This document shows positions 1-12,335 of a stretch of DNA of 53,444 nucleotides, piece after piece. Origin of the DNA: Gammaproteobacteria bacterium (GTDB lineage Bacteria; Pseudomonadota; Gammaproteobacteria; SZUA-140). Position 1 is the stretch's first letter. The number at the start of each line of letters is the position of its first letter. Location of the stretch: the NCBI GenBank assembly GCA_016124415.1, contig WGNS01000052.1, forward strand, positions 1 through 53,444, written 5' to 3'. Made by a program: the position numbers and the translations under genes. Below the pieces are notes generated by a model, which made no database searches, was not told where the DNA came from, and saw only the letters and a list, made by a program, of their open reading frames with translations.

Positions 1-126
1 AGCGGAATCGGCTGTACACCAGATTTGACTATAGCTCTGGTTTTGATTGAGCAAGTACCCCCCAACAATCGTAAACACCATCAGCGCGACGACGACGATT
101 ACGCCAATACGATGCTGCTTCAACAT
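1..126 (-). CDS. Partial CDS running off the left edge; N-terminal membrane anchor/signal, function unknown
   Basis: Not in ORF track. ATG at 126 preceded by GGAG; reads MLKQHRIGVIVVVALMVFTIVGGYLLNQNQSYSQIWCTADSA with no stop to position 1. Confidence 0.6.
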   Translation of the reverse strand, partial: MLKQHRIGVIVVVALMVFTIVGGYLLNQNQSYSQIWCTADSA

Positions 127-270
127 AACGGCTCCCATAAGCCTATATTCAACGGTTAATCACATGTCCGCCCCATGTGCTTTCCGTGTCGTCGCATCGT
201 GTATATCAAGCGCCCGTTCCCTGGCGAGGGCATTCTGACATTGATGGTTATCGGACACATGGCGCGCTCA

Positions 271-420
271 CTTAAGGGCACCTCGAAAAACATGCTGAAG
301 CCGCGTTCGCTACGCTGTAAACGGCCACAAAATACTCAATTGTTTGATATAGACTTCGCCTCTTCGACCACTGATGCCTTGTTCACATCGACTTGATCCG
401 TTTTTGTAGGCGGTCTTAAG
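271..420. mobile_element. Degenerate MITE-like element flanked by CTTAAG
   Basis: CTTAAG at 271-276 and 415-420; imperfect terminal inverted repeats ggcacctcgaaaaac / gtttttgtaggcggt; non-coding and AT-richer than flanks. Confidence 0.4.
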
Positions 421-559
421 GAAACGCGTCATAGAGCGCGCAAGCGCGGTTCGAGCAGACTGCGGGGTTGGGACAAAGGCGTCAGGAGTCAACGCCGACG
501 ATGGGTTTGGATGAGGTCGCTATTTCAGGTCCGCCGTTCGTCTCGGCATGTGCAGGCGA

Positions 560-1516
560 TCATGACGACACGACGTTTCTCGACTCGCCGCGTTGCCAGG
601 CCAGGATATTCTCGGCGACATCCTCGACGAGTCGCTGGCGCGACTCGCGGCTCGCCCATGCGATATGAGGCGTCACGATCAGGTTAGGGATGGACGTATC
701 AAGCAAGGGATTGCCATCTCTGGGCGGTTCGACGCTCAGAACATCGACACCCGCGCCACCCAGTCTTCCCGCGCGCAAGGCGTTGGCGAGCGCGGTTTCC
801 TCGACAATGCCGCCGCGGGCGGTATTGATCAGGATGGCCGTCGGCTTCATGAGCGCGAGCTCTGGGCCGGCGATAAGGTTTCGGGTCTGTTCCGTCAGCG
901 GACAATGCAGGCTCAGGACGTCGACGCGGGGCAACAGATCGGCCAGTGCGATCCGGTCCGGCCCGGGTATCGTTCCCGGACGCGCGGCGATCGATACCTC
1001 CATACCGAAGGCCCTTGCAACTCCGGCCACCGCGTGACCCAGTTCGCCGTAGCCGACGATACCGAGCACCTTGCCGGCCAGCTCCGTGATCGGAAAGTCG
1101 AGCAGACAAAAATCGGGACTGGTTTGCCACCGACCGCCGGTGACGGCGGCGCGATAATCGGATTGGCGGGTCACCAGCGACAACAGCAGGGAAAATACAT
1201 GCTGAGTCACCGACGGCGTTGCATAGCCGCGCGCGTTGGTTACGGTCACGCCGTGGCGTGCAGCGGCCTCAAGGTCGACGTTATTGGTCCCCGTCGCGGC
1301 GACACAGACGAGCCTAAGTTCGGGACAAGCGGCGAAACAGTCTTCGTCGATCCGAACCTTGTTGGATACCGCGACCACGGCTCCGCGCAGGCGCTCGATG
1401 CGCTGTGCGGACGTGGTACGCGGATAGTGCGTCCATTCGACATCGGCGCGCTCAAGCGCCGTGAGGTCCAGATCCCCGGTATCGAAGGTCTCCTCGTCGA
1501 GGATGACACCCTTCAT
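560..1516 (-). CDS. D-2-hydroxyacid dehydrogenase (glycerate dehydrogenase / hydroxypyruvate reductase-like)
   Basis: GIVGYGELG Rossmann motif, LHCPLT, INTARGG, DVLSVEP and TPHIAW family motifs. Confidence 0.9.
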   Translation of the reverse strand: MKGVILDEETFDTGDLDLTALERADVEWTHYPRTTSAQRIERLRGAVVAVSNKVRIDEDCFAACPELRLVCVAATGTNNVDLEAAARHGVTVTNARGYATPSVTQHVFSLLLSLVTRQSDYRAAVTGGRWQTSPDFCLLDFPITELAGKVLGIVGYGELGHAVAGVARAFGMEVSIAARPGTIPGPDRIALADLLPRVDVLSLHCPLTEQTRNLIAGPELALMKPTAILINTARGGIVEETALANALRAGRLGGAGVDVLSVEPPRDGNPLLDTSIPNLIVTPHIAWASRESRQRLVEDVAENILAWQRGESRNVVSS

Positions 1517-1540
1517 GGAACGATGGCGGCTGCGCCGCCC

Positions 1541-2785
1541 TTACTTTTCGCCCCCGGCCTTTGCCTGATCCTCGGCATGCTCATGCGAATGACCGTGATC
1601 GTCATGATGGTGATGATGATCGTGATCATGCGAGTGGTCGTGATCGTGGCTGTGGTCGTGATCGTGATGATGATCGTGGTCGTGACTATGGTCGTGGTCG
1701 TGGTGATGGTGGTCGTGATCATGATCGTGGGTGTGACCATCGTGATCGTGATCGTGGGTGTGACCGCCGTGATCGTGGTGGTGATGATCATGGGTGTGGT
1801 CATCGGGACCGTGACTATGCGGCACGCCGATATCGCCATGATCGCCATGCGTGTGGTGATCGTCGTCGTGGAAGTGGTCCGCGCCGACATCTTCGTGCAG
1901 GTGGCCGTGTTCATGGTCATGGGCGTGCAAGTGAACATGGATATGGCCGTCGGCACCGTGCGCGTGACGATGCGCGTGCAGGAACCCGCCGATGATGCGG
2001 CGATGCTCGTCGTCCATTTCCTGCTCGTGCAGGATGCCGTGCAGGAGTTCATGCGTCATGAGGGCGAGCGGCATTTCGAGCTTGTTCTCCTCGAGCAGAT
2101 GACGGTCGTAGAGGATTTCGGACGTTGGGCCGTCGGCCACGATCTTGCCGTCGACGAGCAGCAAACAACGGCTGCACACCTCGAGCGCGATGTCGAGATC
2201 GTGCGTACACAAGAGGATGGTCTTGTCCGTCTCTTTAAGCCACGTAATCAGGTTACGGCGGTTCAGCGGGTCCATATTGGTCGACGGTTCGTCGAAGACC
2301 AGGATCTCGGGCTGATAGGACAACACGGTCGCGAGCGCCAGACGTTTGCGCTCGCCGAACGACAGATGGAAAGAGGAACGTTCCTCGAAGCCTTCCAATC
2401 CGACGACCTGGAGCGCCTCAGCGACACGGCTCTCAATCTCATCCTTGGGCAAACCCAGGTTCAGCGGGCCGAAGGCGACGTCGTCGAATACGGTCGGACA
2501 AAAAAGCTGGTCGTCGGGGTCCTGAAACACGATGCCGACGCGGCGGCGGATATCGTTCAGATTGTCCTTCCGAACCTCGATACCGTCGATGGAGACCTTG
2601 CCGCTGCTTGCGATCTGGACGCCGTTCAGGTGACCCATGAAGGTTGACTTGCCGGCGCCGTTGGGCCCGATCAGAGCGACCTTTTCGCCCGGCGCGATCC
2701 GACAGGTCAGCCCTTTGAGCACGTGATGCCCGTCCGGGTAGCTGAAGCTGACGTCCTGCACATCGATCATGTATTTATCCGCCAT
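1541..2785 (-). CDS. cbiO: ECF transporter ATPase (CbiO/NikO) with long His/Asp-rich C-terminal tail
   Basis: Walker A GPNGAGKST, Q-loop FQDPDDQ, signature LSFGE, Walker B LVFDEP, THD; follows cbiM-cbiQ. Confidence 0.92.
   Translation of the reverse strand: MADKYMIDVQDVSFSYPDGHHVLKGLTCRIAPGEKVALIGPNGAGKSTFMGHLNGVQIASSGKVSIDGIEVRKDNLNDIRRRVGIVFQDPDDQLFCPTVFDDVAFGPLNLGLPKDEIESRVAEALQVVGLEGFEERSSFHLSFGERKRLALATVLSYQPEILVFDEPSTNMDPLNRRNLITWLKETDKTILLCTHDLDIALEVCSRCLLLVDGKIVADGPTSEILYDRHLLEENKLEMPLALMTHELLHGILHEQEMDDEHRRIIGGFLHAHRHAHGADGHIHVHLHAHDHEHGHLHEDVGADHFHDDDHHTHGDHGDIGVPHSHGPDDHTHDHHHHDHGGHTHDHDHDGHTHDHDHDHHHHDHDHSHDHDHHHDHDHSHDHDHSHDHDHHHHHDDHGHSHEHAEDQAKAGGEK
1590..1830. repeat. Low-complexity tandem 6-mer repeats (gtgatc/gtggtc/gtgatg) encoding the HD/HH tail
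   Basis: Visible tandem hexamers; translate on the minus strand to (HD)n/(HS)n. Boundaries approximate. Confidence 0.8.
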
Positions 2786-2804
2786 CGGAATGATTCCTCT
2801 TCAA

Positions 2805-3593
2805 TTAATACCAGGCCTTCACGGCCTGATGAAAATAACCGCCAAAATCCAGCGCCAGCAGGGCGACCATCAAAATCAGCGTCGCCAAGGACTTGATGAA
2901 ATCGGTCGCGTCCGACGAGAAGGTCACGAGGGTATGGAACTCGCCCTGATAGCCCTTCGAGAGCATGGCCTTGAAGACCCGCTCGGTGCGCTCGAAGCTG
3001 CGCACGAGCAAGGTGCCGACGAAATTGCCGTAGGTCCTGAGCGTATAGCCGTCCGTCCTCGGAATAAAACCCCGCGCGCGCATCGACGTCTGCATGCGCC
3101 GCATCTCCTCGAGGAAAACGAACGTGTAGCGGTAGGTGAATAGCAGCATCTGCACGATGACCTTCGGACACTTGAGATGCTGCAATGCGATCATCGAGAT
3201 ATCGAAACGGCTCGTGCCGAAACAGACGAAGCTGCACAACACGATCGAAATGGCCTTGAGGAAGATCAGGGTCGCGAGCCGCAAACCCTCCCAGGCGAAC
3301 GGCAGGCCCAACACATGCATGGCAGCCTCGCCCGGATAGGTCATCGGCATGATGATGAAGAAGGGCACCAGAAAGATCGTCACGAAGGAAAGTCCGTGCC
3401 CGATAAACCCGAAGGGCAAACCGCTCAGGACGACCAGAACGATCGACAACGCCAGCGCAAGCACCGACACCGGCAAGGTCTTGACGAGGGCGATGCCCAG
3501 GATGAGCAGGCCCAAGGCGCCGATCTTGAAACGTGGGTCCCAACGCTGGATCGGCGACGACACATGGGCATAACGGTCTATATCAAGCGGCAT
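2805..3593 (-). CDS. cbiQ: ECF transporter transmembrane T component (CbiQ/NikQ)
   Basis: WDPRFK N-terminus, SMRARGF and RSFERTERVFKAMLSKGY motifs. Confidence 0.92.
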   Translation of the reverse strand: MPLDIDRYAHVSSPIQRWDPRFKIGALGLLILGIALVKTLPVSVLALALSIVLVVLSGLPFGFIGHGLSFVTIFLVPFFIIMPMTYPGEAAMHVLGLPFAWEGLRLATLIFLKAISIVLCSFVCFGTSRFDISMIALQHLKCPKVIVQMLLFTYRYTFVFLEEMRRMQTSMRARGFIPRTDGYTLRTYGNFVGTLLVRSFERTERVFKAMLSKGYQGEFHTLVTFSSDATDFIKSLATLILMVALLALDFGGYFHQAVKAWY

Positions 3594-3629
3594 GCTTAAT
3601 CCCCTGAAGGTAGGAAATCATTGTAGGCG

Positions 3630-4253
3630 TCACTCGCCCGCGGCTTGCGGACGTTCGCCGGCCAGCACGTCGGGTTTGACGCGTTTCAGGAACCCTGCAC
3701 AAGCGCCGACGACAATGGCCTCGGTGATCATGATCGGAATATGCATGGCCAGCGCGTAACCGGCGGTCGCGAAGAACTCCTCACCGGTCGTGACCAACGC
3801 AAGCGCCAGGATGATACCCGAGCTGATCGTTCCGGTCGCGCCCGCGAGCGCACCGAATATGACCTCTTTCTTTGGCATATTGAAACGGTGGCGCTGCTGC
3901 CAAACGCCGTAAGCGACGAGTCCGCCGCCACCTAGCATCAGCGTGTTGATACCGATCACGGAGACGCCGCCGTGACCGAACAATATCGCCTGAAGCACGA
4001 TTCCGAGCAATATCGCCGGGAAGGCGCGCATTCCGAGCACGACACCGACAAGCCCGTTCAAAATCAGGTGCACGCTGGTCGGCCCGACGGGCACGTGGAT
4101 CAGCGATGCCACGAAAAAGACCGAAGTGATGACCGCGATCTTGGGCACCTCTTCCATATCCATCTTGCGCAAGGTGGCCGCGGCCAGGATGCCGGTGCCG
4201 ACAAAACCCGTGGCCAGCACGGGAGCGGAAAGGATACCGTCAGAAATATGCAT
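3630..4253 (-). CDS. cbiM: ECF substrate-binding component CbiM/NikM
   Basis: N-terminal MHISDG metal-binding motif; SVHLILNGLVG; multiple TM helices. Confidence 0.92.
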   Translation of the reverse strand: MHISDGILSAPVLATGFVGTGILAAATLRKMDMEEVPKIAVITSVFFVASLIHVPVGPTSVHLILNGLVGVVLGMRAFPAILLGIVLQAILFGHGGVSVIGINTLMLGGGGLVAYGVWQQRHRFNMPKKEVIFGALAGATGTISSGIILALALVTTGEEFFATAGYALAMHIPIMITEAIVVGACAGFLKRVKPDVLAGERPQAAGE

Positions 4254-4319
4254 ATTTGATCCTTATCTAGTTTCGCATTTCGGAACAAACCGTTTATTCA
4301 CTCGTCGCAACTCCGTCGC

Positions 4320-4601
4320 TCAGAGCTCCAATCCCAGGTCGATGAACGCAGGATTCAGGCGACGGGCGGAACCGATATAGATCGGGATCGTGATGATCTT
4401 GGGCACATGCCGCATTGAGTCCCCCGCCCGCCCCGACTGAAGCTCCGAGAACTGGTGACAGGCCTCGAGCACCACGGTGGCGTCATCTTCCAACACTTCC
4501 ACCAACTTACATTTGACGCTTTTATAGATGACGCGGCTACCCACTTGCTTGCGAAGCCGCTCGAAATCTATCGGCTGCGATCCTTCCGTCATATCCGACA
4601 T
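4320..4601 (-). CDS. Small soluble hypothetical protein inside the Ni/Co operon
   Basis: 93-aa ORF co-oriented and filling the gap between nikL-like and cbiM. Confidence 0.65.
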   Translation of the reverse strand: MSDMTEGSQPIDFERLRKQVGSRVIYKSVKCKLVEVLEDDATVVLEACHQFSELQSGRAGDSMRHVPKIITIPIYIGSARRLNPAFIDLGLEL

Positions 4602-4707
4602 CGCAACACCTCACGATACACAAATAAACTTATCGGCAGATTGATCGTCCGTGACCAGCCTCTCCGTCCCTAAAATCGCCCTGAAGTCGCTCGCACGACC
4701 AAGACAA

Positions 4708-5340
4708 CTATGTCTTTTTGTTGCCGCCCTCGCGAAGCTTGCGCGCCTGAAGGAAGAAATACACGCCCAGGAAGCCGCCGATGATGCCGATACCGCCGAC
4801 GATGTCACTGACGCCCCGACGCTCCTTGAGCTCGGACAGCCCTCTGACCACCGGCATGACGGCCTCGCCGACCTCGCGACGGACAATGCGACGCAAAGCG
4901 GCCTCATCGACCCCGGCCATGCCGCCTCCCGACACGGCGGCGCCGGCTTCGGGTGCGGGCGCCGTTGCCGCCTTAGCGGCCGGCTCGGCCGTACCCGGCT
5001 CGCCCGCCATCTCCGCCGCCTTGAGGATATATTCGGCCTTGTGGCCCATGCTGGCCGTCAAGGTGATGCGCAGATCGCCCTTGATCTTGGGCACCGGGAA
5101 GGTCACTTCGCCTTTGTCGTTGGTCGTGCCCGACCAGAGCGTTTTACCCTGCTCGTCGAACGCCTCAACCTTACTGTTCAACGCCTTCTTGCCATCCGCG
5201 AAATAGCCTTCAAGGAAGACCTGATCGCCCTCGACGTAGGCAAACATGCTGACCTTATGGGCCATGGCCAATGCCGGAGCGCCTAGCATGACGATCAATA
5301 ACACCAGCGTCTTCACGTATCGTATCACCGAGATGTTCAT
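4708..5340 (-). CDS. NikL/CbiL-like accessory component (signal peptide, periplasmic domain, C-terminal TM)
   Basis: AHKVSMFAYVEG after signal peptide; GHKAEY; C-terminal DIVGGIGIIGG helix; position in the operon. Confidence 0.75.
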   Translation of the reverse strand: MNISVIRYVKTLVLLIVMLGAPALAMAHKVSMFAYVEGDQVFLEGYFADGKKALNSKVEAFDEQGKTLWSGTTNDKGEVTFPVPKIKGDLRITLTASMGHKAEYILKAAEMAGEPGTAEPAAKAATAPAPEAGAAVSGGGMAGVDEAALRRIVRREVGEAVMPVVRGLSELKERRGVSDIVGGIGIIGGFLGVYFFLQARKLREGGNKKT

Positions 5341-5389
5341 AAGTATCCCCACTATATCCTAATCAAGGTTTCGGACAAGCTTCAGAGAC

Positions 5390-5431
5390 GGAAAAGGCGC
5401 GTTGACCGATCACCCGATCAGGCAACGCGCC
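5390..5431 (-). terminator. Intrinsic terminator after the DUF4198 gene
   Basis: ggcgcgttg / caacgcgcc stem followed by TTTT on the minus strand. Confidence 0.65.
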
Positions 5432-5451
5432 ACCGATTTCCGAGGCGACGA

Positions 5452-6252
5452 CTACTTCATGTCGTGCGTCTTGACCCAGAGCACTGCGCCAATCTCGATG
5501 GGATAGTCCTTACCCTCGTGGCGAATGGTCTTGTCATCCTCGTTGAGGGCGGCGAAACCCCACCATCCACTCTTTGGCATCGCATAGGTGAAGACACCGT
5601 TGGCATCAGCCTTGACGACTTGAGTAACCATTGGGGAAGCATCGACCTCCATCTTGCCGTCGGCGAAGTATTCCACTTCTACCTCGGTACCCGGCATGGG
5701 CTTGCCGTTAACGAGCACCTGGCCCTGGAAGACGTTATTCGTGTACAGGCCGTACGGACGGGTCAGCGGCACGATTTCGGTCTTGAGGCCGACCGGCTTG
5801 TCCCAGCCCTCTTCGAGGCCGAAGCCGTTGACCACGACCTTGGTGTAGTGAACGATAAAGGTATCCTCGGCCGGCTCCCAATAGGGCTTGGGCACCATAT
5901 AGAAGGTATGGTCGCCTGGGCCGCGGAACTTGTAGTTAGCCTCGAAGATATCCCTCTTGGCTCCGGTCACATCCTTGCGCTTGGCAGGTTTCAGCGACGA
6001 CAGCAGATCATGCTTCTCGCCGTCCGATGTCATGACCCCGAAGGCCTCCGGCTTGACCAGATTCATACCCTGTCCTTCAAAGGGATGCCAGAACATGGCA
6101 TCGAGCTTGAGGGTACGGGACTCACCATTCATGACCATGTCATCCGAAGGGATCAGCATGCCGAAGTGGGCCTGGGCCTGCATGCTGACCGCGAGACCGG
6201 CGGCCATGGTCGTCATCAGGGAATACTTGCGAATTTTGGATACTGTGTTCAT
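5452..6252 (-). CDS. DUF4198 / NikK-like periplasmic protein
   Basis: Signal peptide ending AQA|HFGMLIP; PYWEPAED; EIVPLTRPY; GWWGFAAL. Confidence 0.85.
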
Positions 6253-6304
6253 TTCATACTCCGGAAATGGCTAGTTTGACGTATGTCCTTTTATCGGGGA
6301 CGAC

Positions 6305-7525
6305 TTAGAAGTTGAGCTGACCGCGCAAGCCGTAGACCGTAACGGATCCACGATCGGCATCGCCGCCGTTGTTGCTGATGACCTGTACGTCCGGCGTCAG
6401 CGTGAAGTGATCGGAAATGCCGATCTTGTAGTAGAGTTCGGTGTGAGACTCATCATCCTGATTCGTCACGCCCATCTGACTCTTGATGAAGGGGTCCTTG
6501 TTGACCTTGATCACACCGTAGCCGATTCCGAACGCATCGTCCTCGCGACCCCAGTTGGCACCGCTGGCCGACGCGCCCAGACTCCAGACCGACTCGACGG
6601 TGTTTTCGGCTAGATCGCTCTTCTGGCTCGAATAGCGGGCGAATACGCCCATCTCATTCGGCAGCGCCTGATCGAAGCTGATACCCCAGGCCGTATTCGA
6701 GGAAACCGTACCGATAATATTGCCGTTGGCGTCCACGCTGGCACCTGCGATCTTGTGGAAGCGGCGCTGATCCTGAATCACATAGAAGCGGTAATTGCCT
6801 TCCAGACCGCCGAAGCCGGGTTTGACGTTGGCCTGTACGACACCATACGGGCGATTGCCGAAGGCATCAAAACCGGCACCGTTGCCGTTGGCCAGGATCA
6901 CGGTAAGGTCCAGGTTATCGGTAGCGGCCATGTTCACGGCTATGCCCGGGGCATAGTAGCGATCCAGCTCCCCATAACTCGTGCCGGGCGAACGCGTGAA
7001 GATGGCCGACATGAACTGGTCGGTCTCATCGTTGGCATAGGCGTTGTCATCATACATGCTGTGGACGTCGAGCTTACCAAAGTCAACGACGAGCTTTTCG
7101 TCCATGTATTCGCCTTCGTAGTACAACTGCGAGAGGTTTGGCGAGTTGCTATCGGTCACACCGTTGGTCGTATCGGTTGCAAAGATATCGGTCACAAAGG
7201 CGTCGTAGTTGGCTGTCGATAGCGAACCGAGCCGGCTATCCACGCCGTGACCGTTACCGGCCTCGAAGGCAGCGATGACCTTGCCGCTGTTACTGACCCT
7301 GGCCTCGATGCTCAAATCAAAGGAATAGGTCAAATCAAGGGCATCGCCGTTGCCGTTGTCGTTACCGTCGGTCCCCTGCAGGAACCAGGTCACGCCCCCC
7401 TCAATACCGAGTCCGGCTACATGATGCGTAATCAGATGACCGCCCTCTTCCTCACCGTCGTGGGCAAAGGCTCCCCCCGAGAACATCGCAAGCGTAGCGG
7501 CTACCGGCAATACCATTTTTTTCAT
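6305..7525 (-). CDS. Outer-membrane porin (OprB/carbohydrate-porin-like beta-barrel), first gene of the metal-uptake operon
   Basis: Signal peptide AFA|HDG; amphipathic beta strands; TLTPDVQ; C-terminal Phe (GLRGQLNF). Start set at 7525 (GGAG upstream). Confidence 0.8.
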   Translation of the reverse strand: MKKMVLPVAATLAMFSGGAFAHDGEEEGGHLITHHVAGLGIEGGVTWFLQGTDGNDNGNGDALDLTYSFDLSIEARVSNSGKVIAAFEAGNGHGVDSRLGSLSTANYDAFVTDIFATDTTNGVTDSNSPNLSQLYYEGEYMDEKLVVDFGKLDVHSMYDDNAYANDETDQFMSAIFTRSPGTSYGELDRYYAPGIAVNMAATDNLDLTVILANGNGAGFDAFGNRPYGVVQANVKPGFGGLEGNYRFYVIQDQRRFHKIAGASVDANGNIIGTVSSNTAWGISFDQALPNEMGVFARYSSQKSDLAENTVESVWSLGASASGANWGREDDAFGIGYGVIKVNKDPFIKSQMGVTNQDDESHTELYYKIGISDHFTLTPDVQVISNNGGDADRGSVTVYGLRGQLNF

Positions 7526-7569
7526 GTTGCACTTCTCCATTAACACGATTGTCTATTCAGTAAATTTCA

Positions 7570-7596
7570 GTATGAACATCTAAACGGAAATCTTAT
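7570..7596. promoter_or_regulatory. Second, weaker NikR-like site
   Basis: GTATGA-N15-TCTTAT, same spacing as the main site. Confidence 0.35.
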
Positions 7597-7647
7597 GGCG
7601 TCCTATAAATTCGGCAGTTTTTATTAGGACTTAAACGGGTGTATTCC

Positions 7648-7674
7648 GTATGACGATTAAATAATACCTCATAC
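7648..7674. promoter_or_regulatory. NikR-like operator
   Basis: Perfect GTATGA-N15-TCATAC with AT-rich spacer; E. coli NikR consensus is GTATGA-N16-TCATAC. Confidence 0.7.
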
Positions 7675-7689
7675 ACTTCGCGTATGCAA
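7661..7689 (-). promoter_or_regulatory. Sigma70 promoter of the Ni/Co operon
   Basis: TTGCAT-N17-TATTAT on the minus strand; the -10 lies inside the operator. Confidence 0.6.
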
Positions 7690-7855
7690 CCAAACAGGAC
7701 TGATTTAACCGCTCTTCAGGAAGCAATAAGACTCGAAGCCGCGCGAAAGGGCTTGCCGATCCCCATCGGATTGAATAGAATGTCGCGTTCTCGCGCAGGG
7801 CCTGTCCGCCCGCGCGCACGGACCGCAAGGACCAACAGCAACAATTGAGAGGAAA

Positions 7856-8068
7856 ATGGCGATGAAGCCCGAGATTCATCCGGCATACAACGAGATCACC
7901 GTGAACTGCAGCTGCGGCAACACCTTCAAGACCCGCTCGACGGCCGGACGCGACTTGAACCTGGACGTCTGTTCCAAGTGTCATCCGTTCTACACCGGTA
8001 AGCAGAAGCTCGTCGACACGGCCGGTCGTGTGGACAAGTTCCGACAGAAGTACGGCTTCAAGGGATAA
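7856..8068 (+). CDS. rpmE: 50S ribosomal protein L31 (zinc-binding type)
   Basis: [26 protein letters not shown]. Confidence 0.97.
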
Positions 8069-8095
8069 TCCCGAGACCGCTTCTGATTCGAGATG

Positions 8096-8123
8096 CAGGC
8101 GCCCCAGCGGCGCCTGTTTCATT
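8096..8123 (+). terminator. Intrinsic terminator after rpmE
   Basis: caggcgcc-ccagc-ggcgcctg then tttcatt. Confidence 0.7.
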
Positions 8124-8939
8124 ATGGGCTTCGTGAAACATTTCGTTCGGGTCCTCCTTGCCGCCGCACTGGGCGTTGCCTCGCACCAGTCCCTGGTCTT
8201 CGCTGCCTGCCCGCAGCCCCGCATCGATGAAACCGCCAAGGTCGCCTACGTCTACGACGGCGATACGGTCCGCCTCAAAGACGGACGCCATATTCGGCTG
8301 ATCGGTATCAATACACCCGAACTCGCGCACAAAAGCAAGCACCGCCCCACATCCGAGCCGACCCAGGACGAACCGCTTGCGCGGAAAGCACGCCAAGCGG
8401 TTATCCGCCTGCTCGGGGATTCAGGCAAGATAGGCCTACAATTCGGCGAGGACCGTGAGGACCGCTATCACCGCGCGCTCGCCCATATCTTTCTCGCCGA
8501 CGGCAGCAGTCTCGAAATCCATCTCCTGGAGGCGGGTCTTGCGACCACGATCGCCATCCCGCCCAACATAGCCCGCCTTGACTGCTATCTGGTGGCCGAG
8601 CGACAGGCGCGGAAAAGTGGTCTGGGCATCTGGCGCGATCCCTACTACCGGCCGCTCGCGGCCGCTTCGGTCACGAGCGGCAATCGCGGTTATCATCGGG
8701 TGCGCGGAATCGTCGAGCACGTCGGCCGTAGCCGCAAATCCGTCTGGCTCGACTTCACCGGTGGTTTTTCGGCCCGCATCCCGTTGAAGGACCTGACCTA
8801 TTTCGGGGGCATCCGGCCCGAGCACTGGCTGAAACGTGAAATCACGGTGCGCGGCTGGATCTCGTCTTATCGTGGCGAGGCGCTCATGACGATCCGGCAT
8901 CCGGCCCAGATAGAGACTGACGATGACGACGAACGATGA
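8124..8939 (+). CDS. Exported thermonuclease (SNase) family protein with C-terminal OB-like domain
   Basis: VYDGDT, IRLIGINTPE, DRYHRALAHI, ARKSGLGIW; signal-like N-terminus from ATG 8124. Confidence 0.85.
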   Translation: MGFVKHFVRVLLAAALGVASHQSLVFAACPQPRIDETAKVAYVYDGDTVRLKDGRHIRLIGINTPELAHKSKHRPTSEPTQDEPLARKARQAVIRLLGDSGKIGLQFGEDREDRYHRALAHIFLADGSSLEIHLLEAGLATTIAIPPNIARLDCYLVAERQARKSGLGIWRDPYYRPLAAASVTSGNRGYHRVRGIVEHVGRSRKSVWLDFTGGFSARIPLKDLTYFGGIRPEHWLKREITVRGWISSYRGEALMTIRHPAQIETDDDDER

Positions 8940-10275
8940 ATTCATAGCGCGCGACCTCGCCTGCGTCTGGCACCCCTGCACCCAGATGAAAGATCACGAG
9001 GCCTATCCGCCGATCCCGATCCGAAGAGCCGAGGGTGTCTGGCTGGAGGACCTCGATGGCAACCGCTACCTGGACGCCATCAGCTCCTGGTGGGTCAACC
9101 TGTTCGGCCATGCCAACCCGCGCATCAATGCGGCCCTCAATCGCCAGCTCGAGACGCTGGAACACGTCCTACTGGCGGGCTTCAGCCATGAACCCGCCGT
9201 GGATCTCGCCGAGCAGCTCGTTGCCCTGACACCGGAGGGTCTCACACGCTGTTTCTATACCGACAACGGCTCCTCGGCCATCGAGGTCGCGCTCAAGATG
9301 AGCTATCACTACTGGCGCAATCTGGGCGAAGAAAAGCGGACGCGTTTTATCAGCCTCAGTAACAGCTATCACGGCGAGACGCTGGGCGCGCTCTCGGTCG
9401 GCAACGTCCCACTTTATAAAGAGATCTATGGCCCCTTGCTGCTCGAACCCGTCACAGTCGCCGCGCCGGACGATTATCTGCGCCCGAGGGACGAGGCGCC
9501 GGAAGACTATCTCAAGCGCCGTTGCGAAGAAATGGAATCAGCCCTGGAACATCACGCGGGCACGGTATGCGCCGTGATCGTCGAACCGCTCGTGCAATGC
9601 GCGGGCTCCATGCGCATGTACGATCCGGCTTACCTGACCTGGCTTAGGGAGGCCTGCGACCGCCACAACGTCCATCTGATCGCCGACGAGATCGCGGTCG
9701 GCTTCGGCCGTACCGGCACGATGTTCGCCTGCGAGCAGGCCGGCATCACCCCGGACCTCATGTGTCTGTCCAAGGGACTCACGGGCGGATATCTGCCACT
9801 CGCCGTGACGCTTTGCACCGACCGAATCTATCAGGCCTTCTACGATGATTACGGGACGCTCAAGGCCTTTCTGCACTCCCACAGCTATACCGGCAACCCC
9901 CTCGGATGCCGCGCCGCACTCGCCACGCTGGATATCTTTGCCGAGGACGACATCATCGTCCGCAACCGGGAACTGAGCCGGATCATGGCGGAATCCGTCG
10001 CCCACCTCGCCGGCCATCCGCACATAGGCGATATTCGCCAGCGCGGCATGATTCTGGCTTTGGAAATGGTCGCGAACAAGACCGACCGGACGCCTTATGC
10101 CTGGCGGGAACGCCGCGGCCAGCGCGTTTATCGACATGGACTTGCCAACGGTATGTTGCTGCGCCCCCTGGGCGACGTCGTTTATTTCATGCCGCCCTAC
10201 GTCATCACGCCCGATGAGATACGGGCGATGACGCGCGTGGCGTCGGAAGGCATCGACATCGCCACCAAGGACTGA
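8923..10275 (+). CDS. bioA: Adenosylmethionine-8-amino-7-oxononanoate aminotransferase
   Basis: [49 protein letters not shown]. Confidence 0.96.
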
Positions 10276-10281
10276 CGAAAT

Positions 10282-11016
10282 ATGAGCCAGATTCCCCGCA
10301 TCTATCACTCCGAACCGCTAACAGCGGGAACACAAGTTACGCTCGAGGAGCAGGCCGGACGCCACATCCTGCGCGTGCTGCGACTCCGTCCCGGGGCAGA
10401 GTTGATACTGTTCGACGGCGCGGGCGGAGAGTATGAGGCCCGCCTTGCAGAAGGCGGCCGGGCGGCCGTTGCCGACGTCATCTCTTTTACGGATATCGAT
10501 CGCGAAAGCCGACTGGAAATCCACCTGGCCCAGGTCATCGCCCGGGGGGAGCGTATGGACCAGATCATTCAAAAAGCCGTGGAGCTGGGAGTACAACGGA
10601 TCACGCCGCTGACGAGCGAGCGTTGCGGCGTGCGCCTGGAACCCGGTAAGGCGGTAAAACGCCTGCTGCACTGGCAGGGCGTTATCGCCAGCGCGTGTGA
10701 ACAATGCGGCCGCAACCGTCTGCCGGAAATCGACGATTGCATCGACCTCTCACCGTGGCTTGCCGACGGCGCGGGCGGCATTCGGTTCATACTGCATCCC
10801 GAGGCGAGTGAGCGGCTCGCGGATCTGGCCGCGCCCGAGGATCGGAAAGTCACCTTACTCGTCGGCCCCGAAGGAGGGCTGACCGATGCCGAAGTGGACG
10901 CCGCCTTGGCGTGCGGCTTCCATGCGATCAGGCTCGGGCCGCGCGTCCTGCGCACCGAAACCGCCGGGATGGCCGCCGTCTCGACACTGCAGGCGCTATG
11001 GGGAGATTTTTGTTGA
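10282..11016 (+). CDS. rsmE: 16S rRNA m3U1498 methyltransferase
   Basis: HILRVLRL, QKAVELGV, ACEQCGR, VGPEGG, LGPRVLRTETA. Confidence 0.96.
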   Translation: MSQIPRIYHSEPLTAGTQVTLEEQAGRHILRVLRLRPGAELILFDGAGGEYEARLAEGGRAAVADVISFTDIDRESRLEIHLAQVIARGERMDQIIQKAVELGVQRITPLTSERCGVRLEPGKAVKRLLHWQGVIASACEQCGRNRLPEIDDCIDLSPWLADGAGGIRFILHPEASERLADLAAPEDRKVTLLVGPEGGLTDAEVDAALACGFHAIRLGPRVLRTETAGMAAVSTLQALWGDFC

Positions 11017-11024
11017 AATCCTAT

Positions 11025-11053
11025 TTGCACAACATGGAAATATCGTCTAGAAT
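11025..11053 (+). promoter_or_regulatory. Sigma70 promoter for the 36-aa small ORF
   Basis: TTGCAC-N17-TAGAAT. Confidence 0.65.
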
Positions 11054-11094
11054 CGGTCCGTCAGTGTGACAATACAAAAATTATGGAGGGGAGC

Positions 11095-11205
11095 ATGACC
11101 TATTTTCCGGAAGTTCTGGTACCCATCGCGATCTTCTTCGGTCTGAGCGTTTTCATGGCCAGCAGCATTGCCGCCAGCGGCACCAAGAACATCGAAAAAG
11201 ACTAA
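11095..11205 (+). CDS. 36-aa single-TM small protein
   Basis: Not in ORF track. GGAGGGGAG RBS; MTYFPEVLVPIAIFFGLSVFMASSIAASGTKNIEKD; promoter before and terminator after. Confidence 0.75.
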   Translation: MTYFPEVLVPIAIFFGLSVFMASSIAASGTKNIEKD

Positions 11206-11230
11206 GACGGGCTAACACCGTCAGTCGAAT

Positions 11231-11260
11231 AAAGCCCGGTTCAAGACCGGGCTTTTTCTT
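11231..11260 (+). terminator. Intrinsic terminator
   Basis: aaagcccggt-tcaag-accgggcttt then ttctt. Confidence 0.8.
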
Positions 11261-11281
11261 TACACGATCGAACGCAACATT

Positions 11282-11815
11282 ATGTCATCGAACAGCACTT
11301 CAGGCTGGCATCCCCTGCTGAAGTTTCCGCTCGCGTCCGCCACGGCCTTTTTTATCGGGACCGTGCACGGCGTCGTTCAGGTTCTGCCGCCCATCCGTCA
11401 CTGGCTCGACTCGATCGGCAGCCCTTACGGCGGCCCGGGACACATGATCGATCCGCTTGCCCATGCCCATATCAACGTCGTCGGTGGCGTGGTGCTGCTG
11501 TGCATGGCCGTGACCTATTATCTGTTTCCCGTCCTGTCGGGACGTCCGCTCTACTCCCAGCGCCTGGTCACCCATACCTTTTGGTGGACCACGATCGGGG
11601 TTTCCGGCTTCTATTCCACGCTGCTGATATTCGGCATCATCGAAGGGCACTATCTGTTGGCCGACGATCGCGCCGGCATGGCCGCCGTGCATCACTATTA
11701 CGGCCCGATCATATCCATCGTCTCCTCGATCATGGGCGTCGGCTTCTGGATATTCTTCACAAACGTCTTCATGACGGCCCGCATGCTGCTGAAGGCGCGC
11801 CGGGAAAATGCTTGA
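11282..11815 (+). CDS. Stand-alone 4-TM homologue of heme-copper oxidase subunit I C-terminal helices
   Basis: LAHAHINVVGG plus YYLFPVLSGRPLYSQRLVTHTFWW, matching CcoN VAHAHLALLGF...YYGLQTIMRRKLYSLALANFHFWF in this window. Confidence 0.75.
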   Translation: MSSNSTSGWHPLLKFPLASATAFFIGTVHGVVQVLPPIRHWLDSIGSPYGGPGHMIDPLAHAHINVVGGVVLLCMAVTYYLFPVLSGRPLYSQRLVTHTFWWTTIGVSGFYSTLLIFGIIEGHYLLADDRAGMAAVHHYYGPIISIVSSIMGVGFWIFFTNVFMTARMLLKARRENA

Positions 11816-12335
11816 TTGCGGCTGTCCTGAACACTACCCCGAGGACTGGCACGGCCGTGACGTCGACCTGTCCGGACATTGCATTCTACGTCTGAGCATC
11901 CCGACCCCGGTTCACATGCCGGTCGGCATCGAAGCCTATCTGCAACGTCAGCAAAGATCGGTCGAGGAACTCGAACTCAGCGAGGAATGGCCCAACCTGG
12001 TCCTGGTCCGCACCGGGATATGGAAAGGGGAAATCATCCGTCTGATTAAGGAAGAAGGTTCGCTATCCCGGCTGGTGGGCTATCTGCCTCGGCCGTTCCA
12101 GGTTCGGGCACACCTGCATCACGGTAACGTCAGCACACTACGCAACTCCCTGCGCCTGATACAGCAATCGCTGTTTGACGAAGGGAAGATGCCGAAGGAC
12201 CTCTACCTGAGCCACCTGACCTGCCCGCGCTGCCGCGACCGGCGCGGCGGAGACCTGATCCTGGTGCTACGCCAATGGCAGGAAAGCCCTACGCTGAAAG
12301 GGCGGCTGGCCAAACAGCAACTAAGGAAAAAATAA
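11808..12335 (+). CDS. Hypothetical soluble protein with CxCP and CPxC motifs
   Basis: MLDCGCP N-terminus, LTCPRC near C-terminus; overlaps upstream stop. Confidence 0.75.
   Translation: MLDCGCPEHYPEDWHGRDVDLSGHCILRLSIPTPVHMPVGIEAYLQRQQRSVEELELSEEWPNLVLVRTGIWKGEIIRLIKEEGSLSRLVGYLPRPFQVRAHLHHGNVSTLRNSLRLIQQSLFDEGKMPKDLYLSHLTCPRCRDRRGGDLILVLRQWQESPTLKGRLAKQQLRKK

Follow-up and report, generated by a model that had tools for sequence, protein, structure and literature searches.

The window analysed here is the whole of a 53,444-nucleotide (nt) stretch, contig WGNS01000052.1 of the assembly GCA_016124415.1, which derives from a gammaproteobacterium of the SZUA-140 lineage. Near its start lies an operon for an importer of the energy-coupling factor (ECF) type, with the gene order porin-K-L-93-aa ORF-M-Q-O (aa, amino acids; ORF, open reading frame) and nikO as the last transporter gene (Table 1). 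The ATPase NikO is encoded by a single ORF of 414 aa at positions 1541-2785 on the minus strand. Behind an ATP-binding cassette (ABC) domain and a C-terminal helical hairpin, the protein continues into a tail that is extremely rich in histidine and consists of two parts, a conserved ladder of His residues and a variable low-complexity region. The first-pass annotation of this DNA had recognized the His-rich tail correctly but missed its division into these two parts.

Table 1. Operator, operon genes and NikO segments at the nikO locus, with positions in the window
Feature	Position	Strand	Basis
NikR-type operator GTATGA-N15-TCATAC	7648..7674	.	about 100 nt upstream of the operon's first gene
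OprB-family outer-membrane porin, operon's first gene	6305..7546	-	PF04966 OprB, E 8e-38
NikK-type periplasmic component (DUF4198)	5452..6252	-	PF10670, E 1e-63, 215 bits, above cut-off
NikL subunit	4708..5352	-	NF058648 'NikL family nickel/cobalt ECF transporter subunit', 157 bits vs cut-off 100
93-aa ORF between nikL and nikM	4320..4601	-	no Pfam/NCBIfam match
NikM/CbiM substrate-capture subunit, N-terminus MHISDG	3630..4253	-	PF01891, E 3e-45; NF004905, 207 bits vs cut-off 173
NikQ/CbiQ T component	2805..3593	-	PF02361, E 4e-30; TIGR02454, 131 bits vs cut-off 112
NikO residues 1-239, ABC nucleotide-binding domain	2069..2785	-	PF00005, TIGR04521, motifs, pLDDT
NikO residues 240-269, C-terminal helical hairpin as in CbiO/EcfA, ends F268-L269	1979..2068	-	AlphaFold, Foldseek, conservation
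NikO residues 270-306, His ladder HAHRHAH-GADG-HIHVHLHAHDHEHGHLH...HFH	1868..1978	-	invariant in 75 and 89 homologues
NikO residues 307-326, acidic His-rich linker ending in semi-conserved VPHSH (G-V-P-H-S-H)	1808..1867	-	column conservation
NikO residues 327-405, variable His/Asp low-complexity region	1571..1807	-	42 His in 79 aa
NikO residues 406-414 (DQAKAGGEK) and stop codon	1541..1570	-	

The His-rich tail of NikO is genuine. Residues 241-414 (174 aa) contain 67 His and 34 Asp, so the original count of about 65 His in a tail of about 170 aa was accurate. Histidine accounts for 38% of this segment, compared with a mean of 2.1% over six neighbouring genes, and NikO far exceeds every other open frame of the 2.19-Mb assembly in His content. 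Misassembly or a frameshift, with a true protein that stops after the ATPase domain, might be suspected on the grounds that repeats assemble poorly and that the source is a metagenome-assembled genome (MAG) of 98 contigs and about 80% completeness. However, a Logan contig from run SRR10063241, the product of an independent assembler, is 100% identical to window positions 95-5785 over 5691 nt and encodes exactly the same 414-aa protein. An in-frame His-rich tail also continues in every close orthologue and in 140 of the 140 homologues retrieved, which come from many independent assemblies, and the first 60 or so tail residues are non-repetitive and highly conserved across orthologues. The probability of an artefact is accordingly negligible.

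The N-terminal part of NikO is an intact and complete ABC ATPase. The Pfam model ABC_tran (PF00005) covers residues 23-168 (E-value 2e-28; 100 bits against a cut-off of 25), while the ECF/CbiO ATPase models of NCBIfam span residues 4-250, with TIGR04521 extending from 7 to 246. A Walker A motif (GPNGAGKST), a signature motif (LSFGE), a Walker B motif (VFDE) and the H-loop residue H195 are all present. Residues G40-T48, the Q-loop residue Q88, L141-E145, D165-E166 and H195 are invariant in an alignment of 89 homologues (65-84% identity), and the motif residues are likewise invariant in an alignment of 75 (62-87% identity to the NikO query across both alignments). All NCBIfam equivalog cut-offs are nevertheless missed, with 227 against 330 bits for TIGR04521 and 204 against 211.8 bits for the cbiO model TIGR01166. 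Given this divergence of the clade and its sub-cut-off scores, NikO is assigned to the ECF ATPases on its fold and gene context.

The canonical fold of NikO extends beyond the ABC domain. An AlphaFold model was built with 75 homologues, and a second run was made on the shortest-tailed homologue. The predicted local distance difference test (pLDDT) score of the ABC domain is mostly above 85, and two further helices are predicted at residues 240-254 and 259-271 with values of 70-80. This C-terminal hairpin carries the conserved residues H245, H249 and H261 together with the invariant pair F268-L269. In Foldseek, the model aligns with the CbiO dimer of Rhodobacter capsulatus (5x40_A) over 274 columns of 280 residues, with a template modeling (TM) score of 0.83 on the target; across solved CbiO structures, the TM score on the target is 0.79-0.83 over 271-277 columns at 34-36% identity. 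A profile search of the PDB returned 3gfo (E 4e-68) and 5x3x (E 2e-61). Since the helices run to residue 271 and align with those of CbiO, the canonical protein would end at about this position, leaving residues 272-414 (143 aa with 62 His) as the true extension. The initial description of a normal CbiO/NikO domain of about 240 aa thus holds for the integrity of the ATPase but sets its end too early.

ECF ATPases normally terminate after the nucleotide-binding domain, and this initial statement is upheld by the solved CbiO/EcfA proteins and by the nearest tail-less relatives, none of which has a comparable tail. These relatives comprise 77 loci at 49-58% identity, mostly from Actinomycetota; their proteins end at about 250-258 aa and have no more than two His beyond about residue 240.

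The ladder is the best conserved part of the tail. Eight histidines (H270, H272, H274, H276, H283, H285, H287 and H289) are invariant in both the 75- and the 89-sequence alignments, and about seven further His within residues 270-306 are conserved at 90% or more. Conservation also extends to F268, L269, A271, R273 and G277. The residues between the histidines are small or hydrophobic and include V284, L/I286 and A288 in the second run, as well as L296. The pattern HxHxHxH-(3..6)-HxHxHxH occurs in all of the retrieved homologues. In 15 orthologues, CAC and CAT are both common at each invariant His of the ladder, and the codons of the adjoining conserved Phe, Leu, Ala and Arg residues drift synonymously. 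The mixture of codons at invariant His positions indicates that the ladder is conserved as protein sequence rather than as a side effect of repetitive DNA; the aligned genes show purifying selection acting on it. The tail is no one-off fusion to the ATPase but an extreme expansion of a module that is common to the homologues and has eight invariant His at its core. The tail lies outside any defined family: searched alone, it matched no family in Pfam and nothing significant among PDB sequences, where no solved structure covers it.

The size of the tail varies widely among relatives. With the conserved FLH motif (residue 268) as the starting point, the tails of 136 homologues range from 48 to 163 aa (median 84) and contain 13-59 His (median 25.5), with three Cys in total. 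On the same scale, the window copy has 147 aa and 63 His, which makes it the most His-rich and the second-longest. The comparison of tail presence and length among orthologues that the first-pass annotation had called for has yielded a ladder that is present in all retrieved homologues within a tail of very unequal length.

Tailed NikO proteins have been found in 21 of the 24 genomes of the same family, generally in ORFs of 309-399 residues, whereas for two of the family matches read-through lengthens the frame to 610 and 628 aa. The proximal tail was detected in 13 of 401 genomes drawn evenly across the class, representing seven families and frames of 320-421 residues. In an even draw of 400 other genomes from the phylum, no match continued past profile position 250, which suggests that the tailed clade is rare at the phylum scale. 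Tailed homologues also occur in MAGs labelled Nitrospiraceae, Nitrospira and Leptospirillia. A search of representative sequences with the 75-aa proximal tail returned five matches, one of them full-length and the others, of 111-207 aa, probably fragments; in this search the clade collapses at 50% clustering, and the composition correction of HMMER probably penalizes such a query. A locus search keyed on generic Walker-type patterns retrieved unrelated ABC ATPases, none of which had the ladder motif in its tail. In some relatives (L091, L094 and L099), the stop-to-stop frame containing NikO measures 610-628 aa, which suggests that the nikQ frame may run into nikO without an intervening stop, either as a fusion or as a mere open frame.

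The distal part of the tail follows a different mode of evolution. Conservation declines through the linker, where P322 reaches 63%, H323 84% and H325 83%, and residues 327-405 cannot be aligned across homologues or lineages. This region contains internal peptide repeats (GHTHDHDHD twice and HDHDHSHDH three times) that match DNA periods of 27 and 18 nt. Tandem Repeats Finder reports a period of 6 with 25 copies at a 64% match, along with clearer units of 18, 27 and 33 nt, the 27-nt unit at 91%. The tandem hexamers noted at the outset are therefore present as a periodicity, but the match is poor and the longer units describe the array better. The codons of the window copy are mixed (CAC 41 and CAT 24 for His; GAT 19 and GAC 15 for Asp). 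Together with the imperfect hexamer array, this mixture points to an old and repeatedly remodelled region rather than a perfect microsatellite. In same-genus orthologues, the proximal 60 residues are almost collinear, whereas several in-frame blocks set the distal parts apart. These differences and the fresh internal duplications in the window copy agree with the early suggestion that tail length changes through gain and loss of repeats, here on an evolutionary scale. The distal composition, in turn, stays alike from lineage to lineage and is dominated by His, Asp, Glu, Gly, Ser and Thr, with almost no Cys or hydrophobic residues. As far as the alignments show, the distal region appears constrained by composition only, its length and sequence changing fast through in-frame duplications and deletions.

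Such rapid change raises the question of whether the distal His/Asp region is neutral, slippage-grown low-complexity sequence, with only the eight-His ladder being of consequence. The region is unalignable, recent duplications are visible in the window copy, and the tail varies from 48 to 163 aa from the FLH motif, so that the distal region is nearly missing in some homologues. Nevertheless, its composition is conserved across lineages, and the mixed His and Asp codons speak for His being retained in the protein itself and against a pure DNA repeat of recent origin, which leaves neutrality a distinctly unlikely explanation.

The operon to which nikO belongs appears to be controlled by NikR, as judged from the predicted operator. 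The perfect palindrome is matched once in the window and never in 100 shuffled sequences, and the same-genus locus L096 has an identical, equally spaced palindrome ahead of its porin gene. A nikR gene is encoded elsewhere in the genome (NikR_C, 96 bits, contig C97). The order M-Q-O is common to 19 related loci, while one truncated locus retains Q-O only, and nikL lies upstream of nikM in all eight related loci that extend that far. The DUF4198 protein, which we take to be NikK, has counterparts in L096 and L098, and the position of the porin gene is also kept in L096. NikL and the NikK-type component thus stand in place of NikN or CbiN as accessory subunits.

Nickel is likely the substrate of this importer. 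Some NikKMLQO systems are predicted cobalt importers that are marked by cobalamin riboswitches (PMC2667541), and for this reason the absence of a riboswitch is informative. An Rfam search of window positions 1-12000 gave no match at E <= 1 and no cobalamin riboswitch, and eight related loci contained no family at the gathering score and no cobalamin riboswitch. In addition, the genome encodes [NiFe] hydrogenase large subunits and hypB; urease was not found in this assembly, which is about 80% complete. Taken together, the NikR-type operator, nikR, the NikL and NikK-type subunits, the lack of a B12 riboswitch and the [NiFe] hydrogenase and hypB genes indicate that nickel, rather than cobalt, is the best-supported substrate.

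These same features bear on the proposal that the tail binds Zn, Co or Cu, or acts as a general sponge for divalent cations, in a transporter that is not nickel-specific. Cys-free stretches rich in His and Asp occur in zinc proteins too; a weak and non-significant compositional match was obtained to the His loop of human ZnT7 (8j7t, E 0.31), and the predicted cobalt importers among the NikK1ML1QO systems (PMC2667541) point in the same direction. Against this stand the NikR-type operator and the nikR gene, the lack of a cobalamin riboswitch at this locus and the eight related ones, and the nickel enzyme and maturation genes of the genome, which make another metal or a general role very unlikely.

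Several neighbouring genes deserve mention in their own right. The OprB porin gene, standing first behind the NikR-type operator, encodes an outer-membrane channel that is apparently co-regulated with the inner-membrane nickel importer. The 93-aa ORF is 79% identical in the same-genus locus L096 and was also called as a gene on L103, the Logan contig. More distant relatives lack it, and their nikL and nikM are separated by only about 80-100 nt. A D-2-hydroxyacid dehydrogenase gene (window positions 560-1516, minus strand) begins 24 nt past the nikO stop codon. No terminator-like site was detected on that strand between the two genes, so they may be co-transcribed; this gene position is kept only within the genus (L085, L096 and L103). 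On the plus strand, a gene for ribosomal protein L31 of the zinc-ribbon type with CxxC motifs (7856-8068) diverges from the promoter region of the nickel operon.

Elsewhere in the genome, His-rich proteins are scarce. The runner-up to NikO is a membrane protein resembling cation diffusion facilitators (CDF), with 14 His in a 40-residue window, and a scan of the assembly, which is about 80% complete, revealed no other strongly His-rich protein besides this CDF-like transporter, which leaves the NikO tail without an evident competitor as a metal store. It is encoded by a frame of about 328 aa on contig C42, the second most His-rich, in which the stretch HGHHHDHDHDHHDHLHHH occurs just before a hydrophobic segment; this arrangement is consistent with a CDF-type metal exporter carrying an N-terminal His stretch. 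A hydrogenase cluster occupies positions 558-10655 of contig C19 and comprises genes for small and large subunits, a second large-subunit-like gene, a sensor kinase/response regulator pair and hyp genes. The HypB protein encoded there has a CxxCGC motif and a short HRHHVHDPH patch, but no long His stretch.

The tail of NikO most likely binds incoming nickel inside the cell, to judge from its sequence and gene context. It is cytoplasmic, and its composition is like that of known Ni-binding tails. On balance, NikO of this NikR-controlled NikK/L/M/Q/O importer probably carries a two-part cytoplasmic metal-binding arm that serves as a buffer and hand-off device at the point of nickel entry. In group I ECF transporters, the ATPase is a homodimer whose C-terminal helices meet at the membrane-distal end. 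The two flexible tails would then project into the cytoplasm next to each other, below the transporter, where they could capture Ni(II) on its release by NikM. If Hpn and the His stretches of HypB are a guide, each chain might hold perhaps ten or more Ni(II) ions. Such capture would keep free nickel low at the entry point, and HypA/HypB or similar acceptors could then receive the metal for the [NiFe] hydrogenase. The ladder, placed directly behind the dimer helices, may provide a specific site of higher affinity, and its occupancy may slow the ATPase and so produce feedback inhibition. The variable region would add capacity, which the large size of the window copy would raise further. The roles of a buffer or hand-off arm and of a feedback switch, all of which the first-pass annotation had put forward, are not exclusive, and its interpretation is partly supported.

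Several points weigh against this proposal. The pLDDT of the ladder is below 50 both in NikO and in the shortest-tailed homologue, and no part of residues 273-414 is modelled with confidence. A beta-hairpin had been considered for the ladder because its His residues alternate with hydrophobic ones, yet both models score below 50 there, AlphaFold modelling neither metals nor a dimer. Among relatives, a perfect NikR box is confined to the same genus, with a single one-mismatch candidate in L100 under a relaxed search. Genes that appear absent, such as those for urease or other His-rich proteins, may have been missed in an assembly of about 80% completeness. Transporter ATPases are normally scarce in the cell, and this scarcity, combined with probable NikR repression when nickel is plentiful, would limit the value of the tail as a bulk store. 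Finally, a Cys-free array of His and Asp is suitable for Zn(II), Co(II) and Cu(II) as well.

Alternatively, the tail may act mainly as a trans-inhibition switch. Rising Ni(II) would bridge the ladders of two NikO subunits, or a ladder and the His residues of a C-terminal helix, and freeze the ATPase, shutting off import more quickly than repression by NikR could, while the distal part only tunes the sensitivity. The placement of the strictly conserved ladder, which starts right after helices matching the C-terminal dimer region of CbiO, and the conserved H245, H249 and H261 on those helices are in keeping with such a switch. A parallel exists in MetN and ModC, whose C-terminal regulatory domains inhibit their ABC importers on binding substrate. 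For a nickel ABC importer, too, control after translation has been published: the Niu transporter is regulated in this way by the metallochaperone SlyD (PMC7840056). No folded regulatory domain is predicted in either of the two models, however, although AlphaFold omits metals and the dimer, and the dozens of additional selected His residues would be left unexplained. Moreover, the C-terminal regions of ECF ATPases remain in contact throughout the transport cycle, and a cross-link at that site need not block closure. A purely regulatory tail is therefore conceivable but rather unlikely. With the same tentativeness, it can be proposed from the sequence pattern that the 4+4 ladder is a Ni(II)-operated switch arresting the ATPase, and that the expandable His/Asp region sets the threshold and forms a local reservoir for hydrogenase maturation. 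If true, substrate feedback built into ECF-type (type III) ABC importers would be seen in this clade for the first time.

The buffer and hand-off arm proposed for NikO can be compared with several known systems. The group I ECF ATPases of known structure (R. capsulatus CbiMQO 5x3x and its CbiO dimer 5x40; Clostridium perfringens CbiO1 3gfo) share with NikO the ABC domain, the C-terminal hairpin and CbiM/CbiQ neighbours; however, solved CbiO proteins end at about 275-280 residues, where NikO continues into its extension. His-rich segments for nickel storage or chaperoning are represented by Hpn, the His stretch of HypB, the C-terminal tails of UreE and SlyD, and CooJ. The NikO tail is like these segments in composition, cytoplasmic location, predicted disorder and the link to nickel enzymes, but differs from them in its fusion to an importer ATPase, its positional 4+4 ladder, the practical absence of Cys and its larger size (67 His). 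The regulatory C2 domain of MetN and those of ModC and MalK are likewise extra C-terminal modules of an ATPase, situated where the subunits meet and putatively substrate-binding; these domains are folded and rich in beta-structure, in contrast to the NikO tail, which has no predicted fold and no sequence or Pfam relationship to them.

Among known operons, the closest likeness is to the NikKMLQO importers (Zhang et al. 2009, PMC2667541), as K, L, M, Q and O are all present and control by NikR appears likely; the window differs in its order K-L-(93-aa ORF)-M-Q-O and in the OprB porin gene in front. The nickel/cobalt exporter RcnA of cable bacteria provides another parallel, its cytoplasmic His loop being expanded to 33-53 His in 100-123 aa and its role being discussed as export or chelation (PMC11247825). 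Both are nickel transporters with a lineage-specific, strongly expanded cytoplasmic His segment, but that of RcnA is an internal loop of a membrane-embedded exporter, whereas that of NikO is the tail of a soluble importer subunit. Neither the comparative genomics of NikKMLQO systems (PMC2667541) nor the survey of cable bacteria (PMC11247825) mentions a His-rich NikO, and full-text literature searches turned up no account of a His-rich tail on NikO or CbiO in the papers covered. The eight-His module on the ATPases of nickel ECF importers is thus apparently undescribed.

The route by which imported nickel travels from the importer to metallochaperones without poisoning the cell is largely open, and the NikO clade gives a handle on it. 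Within this clade, the window copy with its 67 His is a natural candidate for the measurement of binding capacity. The eight-His motif could also serve to mark nickel-specific ECF importers in metagenomes, in which CbiO and NikO are otherwise hard to distinguish. The easily mutated eight-His motif and the evolvable extension behind it likewise offer a concrete handle on whether ECF importers are regulated post-translationally at all.

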